A stretch of DNA of 60,237 bases, from IMG/VR virus record IMGVR_UViG_3300032048_000003, positions 1-60,237 of that record; one strand, 5' to 3'. A model generated the notes under the pieces. That model searched no databases. It was not told the DNA's origin and worked only from the letters and a program-made list of their open reading frames with translations. The translations under genes and the position numbers were made by a program. Positions 7,153-35,327 of this stretch are shown here, one piece after another (the stretch's first letter is position 1; every line of letters starts with the position of its first letter). Source of the DNA: a virus. Lineage: Duplodnaviria; Caudoviricetes.

Positions 7153-7425
7153 ATGGATTTTTTTCGGAGCACTATAATGATTATGACAAGACAACGACCC
7201 CATGTGAAAAAGAGCAAGAAGGTTTATAACCGGAAAGCAAAGCACCCAGAACCAAAATTAGATAGGCATTACGTATCAATGATGGTAGAAGAATATCTTG
7301 CAAAGGGTGGAGAGATCACAAAAATAACTGCAGATGGTACTGTTAACCAAAATTCATGGAAAGACCAAGCAAAGAAAAGTTGGAACACGCGACAAAAGAA
7401 AGCCTCGCAGTGTCCGAGCGGCTAG
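7153..7425 (+). CDS. basic hypothetical protein
   Basis: VEEYLAKGGEITK motif seen in small phage proteins; 3' end overlaps tRNA-Cys. Confidence 0.5.
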   Translation: MDFFRSTIMIMTRQRPHVKKSKKVYNRKAKHPEPKLDRHYVSMMVEEYLAKGGEITKITADGTVNQNSWKDQAKKSWNTRQKKASQCPSG

Positions 7426-7477
7426 GAGATGGTTTGCAAAACCATATACATCGGTTCAAATCCGATCTGCGAGTCCA
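7404..7477 (+). tRNA. tRNA-Cys (GCA)
   Basis: CTCGCAG/CTGCGAG acceptor, ATGGT-TTGCAAA-ACCAT anticodon arm, U73, CCA. Confidence 0.92.
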
Positions 7478-7485
7478 TTTTTTTC

Positions 7486-7514
7486 TTGACATTCCATTTT
7501 TAATATAGTATAAT
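7486..7514 (+). promoter_or_regulatory. sigma70-type early promoter
   Basis: TTGACA-17 bp-TATAAT. Confidence 0.8.
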
Positions 7515-7536
7515 AATTTTATTATAAGGTTACAAG

Positions 7537-7746
7537 ATGCATTCAAATAAACGATTACGCCAAGAAGGGGCTATAGCGCGCTTAGAGAAGACAATTGAAG
7601 CGCATCAAGCGGACTTTAAATTGGTAAATAAGATCATAGAAGATAAAAAGTTAACAAAAACTTCAAAAGAATTAGAGACCCTTCGAAATAAAAAAATTGA
7701 GCGTGCTCAAAAAACGATTGAGAATACAAAAATAGCAATGAGGTAA
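7537..7746 (+). CDS. coiled-coil hypothetical protein
   Basis: First ORF after the promoter. Confidence 0.55.
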   Translation: MHSNKRLRQEGAIARLEKTIEAHQADFKLVNKIIEDKKLTKTSKELETLRNKKIERAQKTIENTKIAMR

Positions 7747-7957
7747 TATCTGTCCAGGGTAGGTGGGACAGAAGTGATCTATTCCACTGTACGCCATAAT
7801 AGAGGGCGGGAATAGACATTCTATAGGCTGGCCGCGTTATTCATCTTATCAATGAGTACGGTGGAGGGGGTGATGCTTTATCTTGAGCGTTTATGTTCTG
7901 TCCGAAAACTTTTCGGCATAACGATCATACGCCAGGTAACCAGGTGTAGACAGATAT
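7746..7957 (+). ncRNA. candidate structured ncRNA of unknown family
   Basis: GC-enriched gap; terminal helix ATATCTGTC/GACAGATAT enclosing several hairpins. Confidence 0.55.
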
Positions 7958-7958
7958 A

Positions 7959-8002
7959 GGAAGCAGGGGTCGCTTAGCTAGCTTCCCCTTCTTCCGTTTT
8001 TT
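7959..8002 (+). terminator. intrinsic terminator-like hairpin
   Basis: GGAAG..GGGG / CCCC..CTTCC followed by GTTTTTT. Confidence 0.6.
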
Positions 8003-8016
8003 AATTGGAGATTATA

Positions 8017-8379
8017 ATGAAATATGCTTTTGATATAGATGGTACTATTTGTACTAATCGCGAAGACGTCAGAGAAGAAAAGAAAGATAATACTATAACA
8101 TATTTGGATATGAAACCGTATCCGAAACGAATTCAATTGGTAAACGATCTCTATGATCAAGGTCATGAGATTATATATTGGACAGGTAGAGGTGGAGATT
8201 CATTTAAAGAAGATCCACATCATTGGTATGATGATACAGAAAGACAATTACAGGAATGGGGAGCCAAATACCATGAGCTTATTGTAGGTGGTAAACCATG
8301 GTTTGATATGTACATTTGTGATAAATCTTATAATTCAGAAACCTGGTTTCCTATTTTTGAAAAGATGAAGGATGCCTAG
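8017..8379 (+). CDS. HAD-superfamily phosphatase-like protein
   Basis: FDIDGT, WTGR, GKPWFDMYICDK motifs. Confidence 0.8.
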   Translation: MKYAFDIDGTICTNREDVREEKKDNTITYLDMKPYPKRIQLVNDLYDQGHEIIYWTGRGGDSFKEDPHHWYDDTERQLQEWGAKYHELIVGGKPWFDMYICDKSYNSETWFPIFEKMKDA

Positions 8380-8661: not shown

Positions 8662-8745
8662 GGGGAGGCTGTGCATTGGTGAGCTCAACAGACTGTAAAT
8701 CTGCCGCCTGAGGCTGTGATGGTTCGACTCCATCTCTCCCCACCA
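8662..8745 (+). tRNA. tRNA-Tyr (GTA)
   Basis: CAGA-CTGTAAA-TCTG anticodon arm, long variable arm GCC-TGA-GGC, CCA. Confidence 0.92.
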
Positions 8746-8748
8746 CAT

Positions 8749-8824
8749 AGGCGATTAGCTCAGACGGGAGAGCAGGTGTTTTACAAGCATCAGGTCACTG
8801 GTTCGATCCCAGTATCGCCTACCA
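8749..8824 (+). tRNA. tRNA-Val (TAC)
   Basis: AGGCGAT/ATCGCCT acceptor, GGTGT-TTTACAA-GCATC anticodon arm, CCA. Confidence 0.9.
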
Positions 8825-8835
8825 CTAGGAAAAAA

Positions 8836-9042
8836 ATGAAAAGGCTATTATTAATTTTTATAATGATGGCAACATGGATAGTTGTTGGTTGTAGTACAGC
8901 AGGATGTTATGGACATTGGGTTAAAGGACCCGGTCATCATAGAGGAACTAGAGCGCTCCTTAAAGACGCTCATTTACCTTACTATCAATGTGTAGATGAG
9001 AATAACAAAGGCAGCAATTTGGAGAAACGGAGATATTTGTGA
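8836..9042 (+). CDS. small lipoprotein (paralog of 9335)
   Basis: MKRLLLIFIMMATWIVVG-C lipobox; upstream part of the track ORF is tRNA. Confidence 0.7.
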   Translation: MKRLLLIFIMMATWIVVGCSTAGCYGHWVKGPGHHRGTRALLKDAHLPYYQCVDENNKGSNLEKRRYL

Positions 9043-9334: not shown

Positions 9335-9568
9335 ATGCAGAAAAAGCTATTATTAATTTTTATAATGATGGCGACATGGACGGTTGTAGGGTGTGAATCA
9401 GTAAAACAAGCAGGATGTTTTGGTCATTGGGTAGAACATAATGATGGATCCAGAAGCGGTCATAAGAGAGGTACGATTTATTCTAATCGACATAATGTTA
9501 CACCTTATAGACAATGCGTGGATGCAGAAGCCCCACACTTAAATAAAGAACGGAGGCCATTCGGATGA
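9335..9568 (+). CDS. small lipoprotein (paralog of 8836)
   Basis: LLLIFIMMATWTVVG-C, AGCFGHWV, PYRQCVD shared with 8836. Confidence 0.7.
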   Translation: MQKKLLLIFIMMATWTVVGCESVKQAGCFGHWVEHNDGSRSGHKRGTIYSNRHNVTPYRQCVDAEAPHLNKERRPFG

Positions 9569-13908: not shown

Positions 13909-15105
13909 ATGTACACACAAGACGATGTTAAAAGGTTAAGTGGTTCAATCCAAATCGAATATACCTTTGCGAAATTAGGTGCAGAAAAATTACGCAAAAA
14001 GTTAGATGAAAAACCATACGTTAGTGCTTTAGGAGCGTTAACAGGTAATCAAGCTATGCAACAAGCAAAAGCTGGGTTGGATTCAATTTATCTTTCGGGA
14101 TGGCAAGTTGCAGGAGACGCAAACGATAGTCTACAAATGTACCCCGATCAATCACTTTATGCAGTTGGAAGTGTACCTACCATAGTTAAGCGTATTAACA
14201 ATACGTTTCAACGTGCAGATCAAATTCAAACAATGGAAGGTGAAGGCGATGTAGATTATTTTCTTCCAATTGTTGCGGATGCTGAATCCGGATTTGGTGG
14301 TGTCCTCAATACTCACGAATTAGTAAAACATTTAATTGAAGCAGGTGCCGCAGGGATACATTTAGAAGATCAATTATCTTCAGCTAAGAAGTGTGGTCAT
14401 ATGGGAGGAAAGGTTTTAGTTCCTACTCAAGAAATGGTAAATAAATTAATTGCTTCAAAATTAGCAGCCGATATAATGGGCGTTCCAACTGTAATTATTG
14501 CAAGAACAGATGCTCTATCAGGTGCGTTATTACAATCAGATTCTGATGCTCATGATAATAGATTCATAACAGGTGAACGTACCGATGAAGGTTTCTTTAG
14601 AGTGACTGCAGGAATGGATCAAGCGGTTTCTCGAGGACTTGCTTATGCTCCATATTGTGATTTAATTTGGATGGAAACATCAGTACCAGATATAGGGGAA
14701 TGTAAGGAGTTCATACAAGAAATACGAAAAGAATACCCAGATAAAGTATTTGCATATAATTGTTCTCCATCATTTAATTGGAAAGCAAAATTAAGTGATA
14801 AAGAAATATCTAGTTTTAAAGATGAACTTGGAGATATGGGAGTAAAATATCAATTTATAACTCTTGCTGGATTTCATTCCTTGAACTATAGTATGTTTGA
14901 ATTGTCTGAAAATTATAGAGATCGTGGAATGACAGGATTTGTTGAGCTTCAAGAAAAAGAATTTGCAGCTCAAGTTAGAGGATTTACTGCTGTCAAACAT
15001 CAACGCGAAGTTGGTGCTGGATATTTTGATCAAATCGGACAAGTATGTACTGGAAGTACAGATCTTAGCGCAATAGAAGGATCGACAGAAAAAGAACAGT
15101 TCTAA
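13909..15105 (+). CDS. aceA: isocitrate lyase
   Basis: [21 protein letters not shown], catalytic [29 protein letters not shown]. Confidence 0.97.
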
Positions 15106-15824: not shown

Positions 15825-16497
15825 TTCATATTGTGATCCTCTCAATGGATTTGATGGAGGGATATCATCAGAAAAAAGATGGTTCAATCTTTTAGACGAG
15901 CCTTCATTTGTTTTTGGTTTAGCGGGTTCTAGTATTGATTGGTCTTTAGATGTATTTCTCAAAGGTCATAATTATAGAGAAGGCAAAGTAATTTATATCG
16001 AATCTATTCCAAGAAGATTTCATTTTGAGTTCTTACAATATCCTGGACATGCCGGCGCGGTTGTGTTTGATAATATGAAGATGTGGGAAAATGATGAGTG
16101 GCTTTCAAATCCTAGGATGAAATATCTTTCCCGTCATAAAAAATTTATAGGATATTTCCATGAAAATTATAAGGACTATCACAAAGCAACAAAGGCTAGA
16201 TGTACATTAAAGGCTTTATCAGAACAATATGAAAAGGTTATATATTTTGCTACTTCACATAATAGAAATTTATATAGTTCTGTAAATATAAAAAATACAG
16301 AAAAATTTATTATGCCTGACATAAGATTAATGGATATATCACGAGCAGAGATAAAGAGCGATTATGATCCTTCATTTAGAGATAAGAGATCAAATCATTT
16401 TACTGAATCTAATCATAAAAATTTAGCAAGATATATTAAAAGAATATTTAATAATGAATCTATAGAAGATATAGTTTTTGATACGGATATGATATGA
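15805..16497 (+). CDS. SGNH/GDSL-like protein
   Basis: N-terminal FGDSY, GLAGSS, C-terminal NHFTESNH. Confidence 0.55.
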   Translation: MIHIFGDSYCDPLNGFDGGISSEKRWFNLLDEPSFVFGLAGSSIDWSLDVFLKGHNYREGKVIYIESIPRRFHFEFLQYPGHAGAVVFDNMKMWENDEWLSNPRMKYLSRHKKFIGYFHENYKDYHKATKARCTLKALSEQYEKVIYFATSHNRNLYSSVNIKNTEKFIMPDIRLMDISRAEIKSDYDPSFRDKRSNHFTESNHKNLARYIKRIFNNESIEDIVFDTDMI

Positions 16498-17939
16498 TAT
16501 ATTGGGGAATTACTTGTGGGTCACACGATGGCGCGATATCTGTTTATGAAAGTGACACACAGAATATAATATTTGCAACTGATGCGGAAAGATTTTCCAG
16601 AAAAAAGAATGATCCTCAAATACCTCTAAGCTTGTTAGATTATGTACGAGAAGAATATGGGGAACCAAGTAAAGTTTATTTTTATGAAAATCCCTATGTA
16701 AAAGTTTCCCGAAGATGGTATGCTGGCCAAAAACCAATTTGGAAACCGCCTGAGTTACCACATCCATATAATACTAAGTATTATAAGATGAAGTATACTT
16801 CTCATCATAAGTCTCATGCCGCCTATGGATATTATACATCACCATTTACTGAATGCATGGTATTATGTATTGATGCCATAGGAGAATGGGAAACATTAAC
16901 TGTCTGGCATGTTAAAGATCATAAGTTTAAAAAATTATGGAATTGGAAATATCCTAAGTCATTAGGGCTAATGTATTCAGCATTAACTCAATATTCAGGT
17001 TGGAAACCTAATGAGGAAGAATATATTATGATGGGGGCAGCTGCCAGACAAGTATATCCATATGAACTAGCAGTTAAAAGAATAAAACAATGTTGGGATA
17101 AAAAAGCGACTTGGCATAAGGGATGTACTAATATTTCAGAATGGAATATAAAACCTGAAATACATCCAGAAGACGTGCCCACTGCTGCTCAAGCAGTTTA
17201 TGAAGAAAAATTTGAAACAATTTTAAAATCAATTAATAATCATAAATTAAATAATGGTAATATTGTATACGTGGGAGGATGCGCCTTAAATGTTAGTGCC
17301 AATAGATTTCTATCAAATTATTTTTCTAATATCCATATACCATCTAATCCAGGGGACTCTGGTTCTGCTATTGGATGTATTCTCGCAAGAGCTAGACACC
17401 ATATTGATCCTACTCCTTATCTTGGTTATAATATTCAAGGACCATATCCGATCAAAGAAATAATTGAAGAGTTAATGATTAAAAGAGTAGTTGGTGTAGC
17501 AAATGGTAGATGTGAATTTGGTCCGCGCGCTTTAGGTAATAGAACATTATTTGGTGATCCCAGAGATCAAAATATAAAACAAAAAATAAATGAAACAAAA
17601 GGTAGAGAACAATTTAGACCTTTCGCTCCAATGATATTGCCCGAAGATGTGCCGAAATATTTTAATGGTGGTTTTCTTTCACCTTATATGAGTTGTGCAT
17701 TAGAAGCAACAGAAGAATTTAAACAGAAGTATCCTGGTGTTGTTCATATAGATGGTACATCAAGATTACAAGTAGTTGATTCAGAACCACATATATCATT
17801 ATTAAAAGTTTGGAAGGACATAACTAAATGTCCTATATTGTTAAACACTTCTTTAAATGTAAAAGGACAACCAATTGTCAACACAAGAAAAGATGCCAAA
17901 GATTTCTCTAAGAGAACGGGTGTCGTTGTTTATTCTTAA
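16494..17939 (+). CDS. carbamoyltransferase (NodU/CmcH family)
   Basis: HDGA, ERFSRKK, HHKSHA, DAIGE, GGCALN, EFGPRALGNR, RPFAP, NTSLN. Confidence 0.93.
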   Translation: MIYWGITCGSHDGAISVYESDTQNIIFATDAERFSRKKNDPQIPLSLLDYVREEYGEPSKVYFYENPYVKVSRRWYAGQKPIWKPPELPHPYNTKYYKMKYTSHHKSHAAYGYYTSPFTECMVLCIDAIGEWETLTVWHVKDHKFKKLWNWKYPKSLGLMYSALTQYSGWKPNEEEYIMMGAAARQVYPYELAVKRIKQCWDKKATWHKGCTNISEWNIKPEIHPEDVPTAAQAVYEEKFETILKSINNHKLNNGNIVYVGGCALNVSANRFLSNYFSNIHIPSNPGDSGSAIGCILARARHHIDPTPYLGYNIQGPYPIKEIIEELMIKRVVGVANGRCEFGPRALGNRTLFGDPRDQNIKQKINETKGREQFRPFAPMILPEDVPKYFNGGFLSPYMSCALEATEEFKQKYPGVVHIDGTSRLQVVDSEPHISLLKVWKDITKCPILLNTSLNVKGQPIVNTRKDAKDFSKRTGVVVYS

Positions 17940-19396: not shown

Positions 19397-19475
19397 TGGC
19401 TGCGGAGGGTGGAGTCGAACCACCAGTTTTATTCGTCCAACAAACGATTGCGTTTACCGATTTCGCCACTCCGCA
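19397..19475 (-). tRNA. atypical tRNA-Asn (GTT)
   Basis: Reverse complement TGCGGAG-TG-GCGAAATCGGTAAACGC-A-ATCGT-TTGTTGG-ACGAA-TAAAACT-GGTGG-TTCGACT-CCACC-CTCCGCA-G-CCA; U1-A72, G73. Confidence 0.78.
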
Positions 19476-19620
19476 ATTTTTCTAATTCTATTGCTTGTCT
19501 TTGCAATTGATCTAATACTTCATGAACACCAGCACCATTTTTATAAATTGGAATTGCTTTATTACTTTTTACTGAAAATAATTTTCCATCTTTATAAACT
19601 GGAATTATTTCTTCAGTCAT
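19429..19620 (-). CDS. small hypothetical protein running into the tRNA
   Basis: Overlaps the stop of the aaRS-like gene; internal IPVYK/IPIYK repeat. Confidence 0.45.
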   Translation of the reverse strand: MTEEIIPVYKDGKLFSVKSNKAIPIYKNGAGVHEVLDQLQRQAIELEKLRSGEIGKRNRLLDE

Positions 19621-20545
19621 TTTCTAATTTCACCCCATATTTCCGCCGGCCATTATCATCTGCATCTGGATTCAAATTACTATATATCTTCAAGGCACTT
19701 ATAAGTCTGGTAAGGCCTATTCCTCCACCATATCTTGGAAAAAATTTATGACTTAAAAATTCTTTCAATTCTTTTTCTACCCGTTCTTTACCGAATAATT
19801 TAAATAATAATCCAGCATATTCTCCATCGGAAATTGTATGAAACTGGTCTTCCATCTCTTTCGGATCAGCAGACCTTTCAGCGGAACCAATAGTTTCCAT
19901 GCCTCCCATAATTACATCGCATTTGTTAGCAAGTTCTTTTTCTTTTTTCATATTCCAAAAGGGAGAAGTATGGTAAGGAAATTTAGTTATAAATCCAACT
20001 CCGGTAGGATGAGAATCAGATATCATTTGTTCGTGCTCGTGATCTAATTCTTCGCAATTAAATTCTTGACACCACATTTTGTAAGTTTTTTCAGGAAATG
20101 GTCCATTGGTTATGAAATTTCCAAACCCAAATTGTCTGGCAACGAAGTCAGGAACTGTGAAACCTAAGTGCTTAACTAAATCTCTTTCCATATTAAGCAA
20201 GTCCTCAAAGTCACCTGGCGCTTCAAATTCAAACATGGGAAATATAACTTCATGTCTACCTTCAACAGGATTCTGTTCTTGTCTATAAGATGTTGAAACA
20301 CAGAATACACCTTTTAAATCTGGATTATTTAATAGCTCGTATTCCAACCACATTTGGCCGGTTTGAGGTAAAGGCCATATGATATCATTATAATTATATG
20401 TTGCGACAGTTGTAGGATCTTCGCATGCGGCTAATATGGATAATCTGTTTTGGGTATGGACTTCGAGGAAATTTTTATCTAAAAAAAATTGTCTAAGGGA
20501 GGTTGTCACTTTGGTAAAATCATGAGGCGAGATGTTCGTCGTCAT
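19613..20545 (-). CDS. class II aaRS catalytic-domain-only protein (AsnRS/AspRS-like; possibly asparagine synthetase A-type)
   Basis: Motif 1 LRQFF..KNFLEV, motif 2 SYRQE..GRH..FPMFEFE, ETIGSAER, motif 3 GGGIGLTRL; no N-terminal anticodon-binding domain. Confidence 0.85.
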   Translation of the reverse strand: MTTNISPHDFTKVTTSLRQFFLDKNFLEVHTQNRLSILAACEDPTTVATYNYNDIIWPLPQTGQMWLEYELLNNPDLKGVFCVSTSYRQEQNPVEGRHEVIFPMFEFEAPGDFEDLLNMERDLVKHLGFTVPDFVARQFGFGNFITNGPFPEKTYKMWCQEFNCEELDHEHEQMISDSHPTGVGFITKFPYHTSPFWNMKKEKELANKCDVIMGGMETIGSAERSADPKEMEDQFHTISDGEYAGLLFKLFGKERVEKELKEFLSHKFFPRYGGGIGLTRLISALKIYSNLNPDADDNGRRKYGVKLEND

Positions 20546-34218: not shown

Positions 34219-35310
34219 ATGAAAAAATTAATTTCAATTTTTATAATTTTGGTTGCAGTCGCAACCTTATTTGGTATTACGGCAGTTGGTAAGAAATTGC
34301 CTTCAGTTGGTTATGTTCTAGTGGGACCAAAAAACGATGGCGGATGGTCAATGAGACATTATCATGGATTCATGTCATTAAAAAAACATGGTTATAACGT
34401 AGCTGGTGTCGAAATGGTGCCAGAATCAGAATCAACAAAAGTATTTCGTAAACTTGCCAGAAAACATGATATTGTATTTGCTACCTCATTCGGTTATATG
34501 GATGGAATGGTGAAGGCTGCAGAAAAAGCACCAGATACAATTTTCATGCATGCCACGGGTTACAAGGGCAATGATACAAATATGGACAACTACGTTTGTC
34601 ACTCATTTCAAGCACGATACCTAACAGGGATTGCAGCTGGAATGTTGACAAAGACAAATAAAATTGGTGTAGTGGGTTCACATCCAATACCTGAAATCAT
34701 TCGTAATATTAATGCACTTACACTTGGTGCACAAACAGTAAATCCTGATATTGAAGTTTCTATAGTATGGATAAATTCTTGGTTTGATCCACCTAAAGAT
34801 ATGGATGCGGCCAAGGCTCTTCTTGATGCAGGAAATGATATACTCTATACAACAACCGATTCACCTAGTGTAGTTGCTCTTGCTCAACAAGCATGGAAAA
34901 CTAATGGTAAAGAAGTTTGGAGTATGGGTAATGATGCACCTATGGGAAGTAACGGCCCAGACCGATACATCACAGGAATGATGTTCAACTGGAATGTTCT
35001 TTACAAAACAATTGTTGATCAACTTGCAGCTGGAAAACTCAAAATGAACCAGAGATGGAATTGGGGCTTACAAGAAAATTGTGTAGGTCTATCGCCATGG
35101 GGTAAGAATGTTCCGGGTGAAGTTGTTAATAAAGTTGAAACTGTCAAGATGCAATGGATTCAAGATGATCTGGATACATACTTTCCTTTTGATCAAGGAA
35201 TCACAAAAGCTGATGGAAGCACAGTTGGTAAAGGTGAAATTGCTAGACCTCAAATAGAAACTATGCAATATTTTGTTAAAGGGGTTGTTTCCCGATTTCC
35301 CTCAAAATAA
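34219..35310 (+). CDS. BMP-family (purine nucleoside) solute-binding protein
   Basis: Signal peptide; VGPKNDGGW, ATSFGY, HATGYK, RYLTGIAAG, SWFDP. Confidence 0.9.
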   Translation: MKKLISIFIILVAVATLFGITAVGKKLPSVGYVLVGPKNDGGWSMRHYHGFMSLKKHGYNVAGVEMVPESESTKVFRKLARKHDIVFATSFGYMDGMVKAAEKAPDTIFMHATGYKGNDTNMDNYVCHSFQARYLTGIAAGMLTKTNKIGVVGSHPIPEIIRNINALTLGAQTVNPDIEVSIVWINSWFDPPKDMDAAKALLDAGNDILYTTTDSPSVVALAQQAWKTNGKEVWSMGNDAPMGSNGPDRYITGMMFNWNVLYKTIVDQLAAGKLKMNQRWNWGLQENCVGLSPWGKNVPGEVVNKVETVKMQWIQDDLDTYFPFDQGITKADGSTVGKGEIARPQIETMQYFVKGVVSRFPSK

Positions 35311-35327
35311 TATAATGAAAGGTATAT

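Follow-up and report, generated by a model that had tools for sequence, protein, structure and literature searches.

A probable orphan structured RNA in the tRNA region of an uncultured marine T4-like phage

Does the GC-enriched gap between two small protein genes in the tRNA region of a marine virus record encode a functional RNA, and how might such an RNA act? The record in question, IMGVR_UViG_3300032048_000003 of IMG/VR, was analysed over its whole length of 60,237 bp (the window), which is estimated to be 36% of a genome. The gap is flanked by an open reading frame (ORF) for a basic protein of 69 aa (ORF69) and by a gene for a HAD-type phosphatase (HAD). An earlier note, made from the sequence alone, had described a multi-helix RNA candidate of about 210 nt in this gap, and all the helices it had listed, a hairpin competing with the closing helix, a terminator-like hairpin downstream and a consensus promoter at 7486 were recovered in place. 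We conclude that the element represents a new, narrowly distributed structured RNA family and is an orphan structured RNA of a T4-like phage. That it is a real structured RNA we regard as very probable.

Maintenance of the fold in three copies

The element consists of a domain closed by a long-range helix (P1) and of a 3′ hairpin that follows it (Table 1). Three copies in two lineages were found. The copy in L002 (IMG/VR contig 3300050007_000392, 1258-1466) is 90% identical to that of the window, with 191 identical positions of 212 and 209, respectively. The copy in L086 (contig 3300021087_001082) comprises 240 nt (1199-1438) plus the hairpin and is only 56% identical (135 identical positions of 212 and 240). 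It was reached by synteny: an alignment of HAD proteins led to 285 IMG/VR relatives, 80 of which were kept as loci, and a tblastn search of these with ORF69 gave two matches, the L002 contig and L086. A scan of the 80 loci for gaps flagged only L078, which is the L002 contig, and L099 with a gap of 132 nt; L086 was missed because of a spurious open frame there. ORF69 and HAD of L086 are 61% and 62% identical to their counterparts in the window. All three carriers show tRNA-Cys, ORF69, element, HAD and tRNA-Tyr in this order.

In the divergent copy the helices are present with different letters. P1, which as RNA reads AUAUCUGUC/GACAGAUAU in the window, is found in L086 at the same place as GUAUACC/GGUAUAC with 7/7 pairs; when the strands are anchored at the inner end beside ACCAGGUGUAG, four of the seven aligned pairs are altered on both sides (by reading). 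Hairpin H4 is a 10-bp hairpin in L086 (10/10 pairs) with the loop ACAUCA, similar to the loop CUUAUCA of the window, and with the loop as anchor five of seven aligned pairs are altered on both sides. H5, which contains four G-U pairs in the window, is formed in L086 by five Watson-Crick pairs (GGUGA/UCACC) on the conserved 5′ strand. The tip of H6 pairs completely in both copies, CCGAAA/UUUCGG (6/6) in the window and GUCUUUCC/GGAAAGAC (8/8, pair probability 1.00) in L086. In the window, H3 has a main stem of 8/8 pairs (TCTATTCC, 7778-7785, with GGAATAGA, 7809-7816) and a tip formed by CGCC (7792-7795) and GGCG (7805-7808); L086 also has a long hairpin on the shared AGAAG base, with a different upper stem. 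The arms of the 3′ hairpin pair at 11/11 positions in L002 and at 10/11 in L086, where two pairs are altered on both sides compared to the window. A U-tract follows this hairpin in the window and in L002, while L086 has GUUAACAAUU there. The lower tier of H6 (CGTTTATG, 7888-7895, with CATAACG, 7917-7923; seven pairs and a one-base bulge by reading) is uncertain, and RNAalifold favoured another small helix at this place.

Several blocks show the opposite behaviour, since GGUGG, AGAAG, AGGCUGG, GGGUGAUG, UAACG and ACCAGGUGUAG (7939-7949 in the window) are kept in all three copies (by reading). On this comparison of sequences, helices are maintained while their letters change, and the blocks in junctions, loops and conserved strands are invariant.

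The close pair agrees with this picture. Between window and L002, 6-12% of third codon positions in the flanking genes are different. Within the element, 9 of 132 paired columns differ compared to 21 of 80 unpaired ones (Fisher p 1.6e-4), a count that is partly circular as the structure was predicted on that very alignment. All 132 pair cells stay standard pairs. The two changes in H5 are one-sided and keep the pairing, and the tip loop of H3 differs while its tip stem is kept. The earlier note had named covariation among homologs as a check, and both-sided changes are seen between window and L086. They carry no statistical force: three copies in two lineages give no power, and shuffles of the two close copies match them in 244 of 500 cases. 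Furthermore, MAFFT, both plain and in the L-INS-i mode, fails on the middle of the alignment between window and L086, and the helices were matched by hand via their coordinates.

Folding energies were compared with those of dinucleotide shuffles, 200 for each copy. The stretch 7746-8002 folds at -91.6 kcal/mol versus -72.6 ± 4.9 kcal/mol in the shuffles (z -3.86), and none of the 200, the kind of control named in the earlier note, was as good. Values were similar for 7746-7958 (z -3.80, 0/200), for the copy in L002 (z -3.08, 2/200) and for that in L086 (z -4.61, 0/200). Nevertheless, z is only -1.15 for 7758-7969, from which the 5′ strand of P1 is left off, and the reverse strand reaches z -4.5 as well. 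Therefore folding energy alone decides neither the strand nor the fold, and it is the comparative data that do. The RNA is assigned to the plus strand, because 13 G-U pairs across the listed helices would become A-C mismatches on the opposite strand. The U-tract and every neighbouring gene are on the plus strand, too.

The element is non-coding. The only plus-strand ORF of at least 30 aa within it (35 aa, 7852-7959) is broken by one-base indels in L002, and a small protein was rejected for this reason; the element in L086 contains only unrelated plus-strand ORFs of 26-28 aa. The GC content is 0.435-0.475 over 7700-7999 and 0.30-0.38 in the flanks, so that the description of the locus as a GC-enriched gap with no good ORF was accurate. 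Other candidate readings were discarded as well. ARAGORN finds no tRNA-like or transfer-messenger RNA (tmRNA) structure at the element, no reverse-transcriptase domain for a retron-like RNA is present among the ORFs scanned, and a long-range fold specific to the window (GGACAGAA/UUCUGUCC) is broken in L002 and absent in L086.

Contigs from ocean RNA libraries

All sampled words of 7480-8100 are contained in 10 DNA runs and a fraction of 0.91-0.97 in four more, the 14 runs coming from 12 marine studies. Six RNA runs contain 0.15-0.31 of the words, X19 having a share of 0.22 and X20 one of 0.15. For the other four RNA runs (X15-X18), from four studies, assembled contigs with a depth of 4-9 were compared with 7350-8250.

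In three of these studies the matched contig stretch (X15, X16 and X17; Table 1) lies wholly within the element. X15 and X17 both begin at 7763 in the GGUGG block, where the DNA continues, which is a weak hint of a real end. The 19 further letters that precede 7763 in X17 are presumably the end of an Illumina adapter and would then imply a fragment end at this position. No contig of the three runs covers tRNA-Cys, ORF69 or HAD, a fact that was not counted as evidence. The fourth run (X18) is an oligo-dT library and has a contig on 7475-7686 but none on the element; a second piece of it at 8016-8056, with five differences and unlike the window on both sides, belongs to something else. No joints that would indicate a circular RNA were present in the contigs.

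The element is likely to be expressed. The evidence for a discrete RNA of at least ~207 nt is fair but not conclusive: contigs of 189-207 nt from three RNA libraries fall inside the element, but these contigs give no strand, no level and no exact ends, and DNA may occur in RNA libraries. The 5′ strand of P1 is missing from all of them, which is hard to square with the covariation of P1 unless the contig ends are eroded or P1 acts in a precursor. With contig starts at 7758 or 7763, the RNA that accumulates may lack the closing helix.

Table 1. Features of the element and its surroundings in the window, and RNA-library contigs on it
Feature	Position	Strand	Details
tRNA-Cys (GCA)	7404..7477	+	upstream landmark; ARAGORN; Rfam tRNA 57.1 bits
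Consensus sigma-70-type promoter	7486..7514	+	TTGACA-17 nt-TATAAT; 12/12 consensus positions
ORF69, basic protein, 69 aa	7537..7746	+	ORF list; homologs at 40-96% identity
Structured RNA domain, 212 nt	7746..7957	+	closing helix P1, hairpins H3-H7; H2 weak
P1, 5′ strand ATATCTGTC	7746..7754	+	pairs with 7949-7957, 9/9
Junction block GGUGG after P1	7762..7766	+	conserved; two RNA-library contigs begin at 7763
H3, long hairpin	7770..7822	+	base AGAA/UUCU; main stem 7778-7785/7809-7816; tip CGCC/GGCG
Junction block AGGCUGG between H3 and H4	7825..7831	+	same in window, L002 and L086
H4, hairpin with loop CUUAUCA	7838..7858	+	TATTCAT 7838-7844/ATGAGTA 7852-7858, 7/7 pairs
H5, hairpin	7867..7884	+	conserved block GGGUGAUG (7868-7875) in 5′ strand and loop
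H6, two-tier hairpin	7888..7923	+	lower tier CGUUUAUG/CAUAACG; top CCGAAA/UUUCGG
H7, hairpin with loop AGGUAACCA	7928..7948	+	UACGCC 7928-7933/GGUGUA 7943-7948; pair probability 0.97-0.98
P1, 3′ strand GACAGATAT	7949..7957	+	pairs with 7746-7754
3′ hairpin	7959..7995	+	arms 7959-7969/7985-7995, 10/11 pair (by reading)
G and U6 tract	7996..8002	+	makes the 3′ hairpin an intrinsic terminator
HAD-type phosphatase gene, 120 aa	8017..8379	+	PF25109 HAD_PNKP; phrog_1238
tRNA-Tyr/Val	8662-8824		downstream landmark; ARAGORN
Contig X15	7763-7969		207 nt; 100% identical to window
Contig X16	7758-7946		189 nt; 100% identical to window
Contig X17	7763-7944		202 nt; 19 further letters before 7763; matched part 100% identical

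Distribution and history of the locus

Searches with Rfam 15 assigned the element to no family. On 7480-8100 (621 nt), at E values up to 10, the only match was mir-5391 at chance level (17 bits, E 1.2), lying on the terminator hairpin. On 1150-1520 of L086 (371 nt) only a fungal snoRNA model appeared at the same threshold, with 13.3 bits again at chance level. At E up to 10 there was no match to the models of self-cleaving ribozymes, tmRNA, RNase P, signal recognition particle (SRP), 6S or Y-like RNA, in agreement with the earlier statement that no RNase P, tmRNA or SRP signature is visible. Over the whole window, only tRNAs reached the gathering scores. With the threshold relaxed to an E value of 1, these were joined by one weak match, to the PAGEV RNA model (RF03037), far from the element at 35152-35324 (+), over the full model length and with 24.5 bits versus a gathering score of 61.1 (E 0.043).

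Searches for further copies were likewise almost empty. Blastn with 11-base words of 7480-8020 found no match in GenBank phages, and the element was found by blastn in none of five related whole virus records, one of them complete with 177 kb. A covariance model built from the two close copies (R1) matched none of these five records; it found only the window itself over 63 sources (213 kb) and only the L002 contig (as L078) over the 80 HAD loci (259 kb). R1 misses the real copy in L086 even with its filters off, so these negative results apply to close relatives only. The collected loci, searched by blastn with 7-base words and by nhmmer, gave the L002 contig only. Among the scans of IMG/VR, a 16-mer matched 8 loci with one real copy, and a 17-mer matched 2 loci with one real copy, the other (L075) being a GC-rich coding region; a 23-mer with one N matched one locus, an already known copy, and a pattern of the 3′ motif matched two loci, both known copies. 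In prokaryote genomes two 20-mers gave no locus and one locus, respectively, the latter a local match of 17 nt in a metagenome-assembled genome of Acidobacteria. The element is in none of the at least 51 metagenome loci listed with ORF69 relatives, a list from which records near the window may be left out, and Rfam at E up to 0.01 found nothing on 20 of these loci. No paper on this RNA was found in the literature, where sequences are hardly searchable. The proposal of a new phage RNA class has therefore gained ground: the element has no Rfam family, is non-coding, keeps its helices at 56% identity and recurs in contigs from RNA libraries.

The window itself is derived, as judged from one of its proteins, from an uncultured, distant marine T4-like phage, because the best GenBank phage matches of this 840-aa protein, mainly T4-like cyanophages, have only about 31% identity. 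All 464 GenBank records that match this protein stay below 60% identity (Pelagibacter phages, n=3). ARAGORN lists seven tRNA genes in the window. ORF69, whose stop codon TAA (7744-7746) shares its last base with the first base of the element, matches no Pfam and no PHROG family and only unnamed viral clusters in the ESM Atlas, with scores up to 0.80; its homologs (40-96% identity) were found at 7 viral loci and at least 51 metagenome loci. The HAD protein matches PF25109 HAD_PNKP with 30 bits (cut-off 27.6) and phrog_1238 with 9.5e-25, and its nearest solved chain is 9iqw_A, annotated as 'Capsule biosynthesis protein' (6.1e-07).

From the promoter at 7486-7514 a transcript would start near 7521 and carry ORF69 together with the element. 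In L002 no promoter is present at the matching place, and another gene runs into ORF69 there (by reading). The 3′ hairpin was not listed by the consensus terminator scan because its loop of 15 nt exceeds the limit of 3-8 nt. From the U-tract to the ATG of HAD there are 14 nt that include GGAG, and no promoter was found in this interval of the window by reading and by the consensus scan. A TAATAT at 7744-7749, lying over the ORF69 stop and the start of P1, could be a -10 box with a start at about 7756-7758, close to the start of the X16 contig; no -35 box was seen, and the motif is kept in L002 and not in L086.

The slot downstream of ORF69 varies between phages. It holds a tRNA (L019, L021, L022) or a promoter and a manA RNA (L018), and mostly the next gene follows directly. 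In L024, L025 and L026 the ORF69 and HAD homologs are 9-60 nt apart and no element is present. According to this, the element is in all likelihood an insertion of ~270 nt into an older ORF69-HAD junction that was kept in two lineages, which have since diverged to ~60% protein identity. HAD relatives of 79-84% identity follow a different gene and have no element. The sister contig of L086, L085, retains only the first 17 nt of ORF69, which run directly into the final bases of the hairpin; the junction is at a GTCCG common to both places (L085:1440-1500 vs L086:989-1475). ORF69, element and hairpin were thus lost together in one clean deletion, and HAD keeps its ribosome-binding site (RBS).

Two further gaps were noticed beside ORF69 homologs. 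The 60-nt spacer between ORF69 and HAD in L025 (450-511) already has a hairpin with a T-run, so the two genes may have been separated by a terminator before the element arrived. In the metagenome contig L071 a non-coding gap of 533 nt (1369-1901) extends from an ORF69 homolog to a gene whose beginning resembles that of the 325-aa gene in L018; Rfam gives no match in this gap at E up to 10, and the gap folds no better than shuffles (z 0.34).

Elsewhere in the window, two small plus-strand ORFs (8716-9042 and 9335-9568) resemble each other in their bodies and are nearly identical at their lipoprotein-like N-terminus (KRLLLIFIMMATW.VVGC), which suggests a tandem duplication beside tRNA-Val. A tRNA-Asn gene (19397-19475, -) adjoins the gene of a 309-aa protein with a class II aminoacyl-tRNA synthetase core (19613-20545, -; PF00152, 7.5e-21), which is the only ORF of at least 250 aa in the window that is not on the plus strand. 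Auxiliary metabolic genes at 1363-2709, 13909-15105 and 16494-17939 encode a radical SAM protein, an isocitrate lyase family protein (3.8e-96) and a carbamoyltransferase.

Possible modes of action

Our best explanation, held tentatively and as a whole with slightly less than even confidence, is a stable processed RNA that acts in trans. The element would be transcribed together with ORF69, in the window from the promoter at 7486. The conserved hairpin, in two of the three copies a full intrinsic terminator, would define or shield its 3′ end. The 5′ end would be trimmed in the junction near 7758-7763, and the compact fold would outlive the rest of the transcript in the way tRNAs and the species 1 and 2 RNAs of T4 do. 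During infection the RNA could then engage a factor of host or phage, be it as a binding partner, a decoy or a scaffold. An invariant core combined with freely varying helices argues for recognition of a protein or small ligand and not for antisense pairing. The domain and the 3′ hairpin stand side by side without being interlocked (by reading), and such adjacent independent modules are the layout of a stand-alone structured RNA.

Known RNAs resemble the element in part. CpxQ and SroC of enterobacteria are small RNAs from mRNA 3′ ends that share the terminator of the mRNA, have a processed 5′ end and act by a short seed together with Hfq. Like these, the element directly follows a stop codon, has transcript and terminator in common with the ORF before it and seems to begin at an internal 5′ end; unlike these, it is a large RNA of many helices, with blocks conserved in junctions, loops and helix strands. 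The stable T4 RNAs rnaC (species 1) and rnaD (species 2), of 139 and 119 nt (NC_000866, 70908-71171), abut a tRNA gene and are not known to have a function. The analogy to these RNAs that the earlier note had drawn applies to the position, as the phage is T4-type and the element is encoded within its tRNA region and on the tRNA strand, between tRNA-Cys and tRNA-Tyr in all three carriers. It does not extend further: the T4 RNAs are shorter, the element lies between two protein genes and not in a tRNA array, and R1 run without filters on NC_000866 68500-74500 gave nothing at rnaC/rnaD (2409-2672 of this stretch), its best score of 9.7 bits being elsewhere.

Several points weigh against a trans-acting RNA. 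No trans target or partner is indicated by any result. Without a U-tract, the RNA in L086 probably runs into the HAD message, which suits a leader better, and the deletion in L085 means that the element is dispensable in that lineage. To these are added the limits given above, namely the small number of copies with its lack of statistical force, the partly circular column count, the alignment by hand, and contigs that omit a covarying strand and may stem from DNA.

Alternatively, the element could be a cis-acting leader of the HAD gene, in which the domain senses a metabolite or binds a protein and sets the passage past the hairpin into HAD, while the short library RNA would be a terminated or processed leader. 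We consider this possible and give it a sizeable minority of our belief. Element and hairpin are located directly 5′ of the HAD start in all three copies. As no promoter is read between terminator and gene in the window, transcription of HAD in window and L002 would depend entirely on the polymerase passing a strong terminator. A pattern in which blocks stay invariant and helices vary is typical of aptamers, and the hairpin is kept in L086 with compensatory changes despite the lost U-tract, so that termination is not all it does. Furthermore, L018 (IMGVR_UViG_3300009104_001678), whose ORF69 is the closest (67%) once the near-identical pair is set aside, has a manA RNA in the same slot (264-469; 54.8 bits vs a gathering score of 55.2, E 1.7e-13), arranged likewise as structured RNA, T-run, RBS and gene. 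This manA RNA follows the ORF69 homolog and a TTGACA/TATAAT promoter and precedes a 325-aa gene and sliding-clamp and clamp-loader genes (by reading).

The manA and wcaG RNA candidates are thought to act as cis leaders, and the manA RNAs lie in the 5′ untranslated region of genes for sugar metabolism, nucleotides or photosynthesis in marine phages or bacteria. Weinberg et al. 2010 (PMC2864571) describe manA as a complex multi-hairpin RNA restricted nearly to marine sequences and T4-like phages, located 5′ of sugar-related genes and unproven in function, and wcaG as a riboswitch candidate of marine T4-like phages with exopolysaccharide-related genes downstream. The element is like manA a multi-hairpin RNA of ~190-240 nt in a marine T4-like phage. 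It lies 5′ of HAD, whose nearest solved relative is a capsule biosynthesis protein; manA and wcaG precede sugar and exopolysaccharide genes (PMC2864571). With wcaG (RF01761) it shares the habitat and perhaps the kind of downstream genes, but not a model match at E up to 10. Unlike the manA RNA of L018 with its own promoter, the element shows none by reading.

Other observations speak against a leader. The hairpin at 7959-7995 adjoins P1 without overlapping it, and by reading no antiterminator or other alternative pairing between domain and hairpin was found, which is at odds with a riboswitch expression platform. The conformational switch suggested in the earlier note is not borne out for the same reason, and the competing hairpin on which it was based (TCTGTCC, 7749-7755, with GGACAGA, 7766-7772; 7 bp) is present in the window and, with a U-G wobble, in L002 but reaches at best 4 bp in L086 (by reading). 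The three copies probably go back to one insertion, so the association with HAD is a single event. Among the 80 HAD loci kept from 285, only the L002 contig and L086 carry the element, the other 78 show no comparable leader in the scans made, and L085 keeps HAD with its RBS after losing the element. A more specific version, a new ligand-sensing RNA class (a riboswitch or a glmS-like self-cleaving ribozyme) by which marine T4-like phages would couple a sugar-phosphate phosphatase gene to the metabolic state of the infected cell, we consider unlikely. In this case the junction blocks would be the pocket, the end at 7763 in GGUGG the site of processing or cleavage, and the hairpin before the RBS the output.

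That the element is a selfish or accidental insertion similar to a miniature inverted-repeat transposable element (MITE), passively transcribed and with terminal inverted repeats in place of the closing helix, is improbable. It is an insertion of ~270 nt relative to phages with adjacent ORF69 and HAD, has a perfect 9-bp inverted repeat at its bounds and is patchily distributed with one clean deletion known. MITEs are expected in many dispersed copies, but the record contains a single one and four word or pattern scans of IMG/VR add only the two syntenic copies. The terminal repeats differ between the lineages yet stay complementary, which is the behaviour of an RNA helix and not of a transposase site; the internal hairpins covary, too, and no transposase was found nearby among the window ORFs and by the domain scan.

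A very divergent manA RNA (RF01745) in the slot used in L018 is still less probable. Size (192 model positions vs 212-240 nt), place after ORF69, a multi-hairpin fold closed by a long-range helix and, by reading, a window hairpin loop with UAACCA as in the manA consensus are in favour of it. However, the manA model reaches 54.8 bits on L018 but has no match to the window copy (621 nt searched) or to L086 (371 nt) at E values up to 10, nor to any part of the window at E up to 1; helix order and number as well as the conserved blocks differ (by reading), and only three copies are known; identity with manA was rejected. Finally, a chance GC-rich spacer or a signal at the DNA level, such as a replication or packaging site, would account for the reverse strand folding as well (z -4.5), the weak energy without P1 (z -1.15) and the presence of three copies only, but is very improbable given helices kept down to 56% identity with G-U pairs that fit one strand only, substitutions that avoid paired columns and never break pairs, and RNA-library contigs that consist of the element.

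For a first case the element is unusually complete, as compensatory changes, an invariant core, empty-site and deletion variants and pieces from several ocean studies are at hand. Few viruses on Earth are as abundant as marine T4-like phages, and ever since T4 the tRNA regions of such phages have been known to encode stable RNAs. If the element acts in trans, it would be a candidate for an RNA used by such a phage against or together with a host factor. If it is a sensor of the phosphatase gene, it would add a phage-specific class of regulatory RNA beside manA and wcaG, with a tractable downstream gene that could hint at the ligand.

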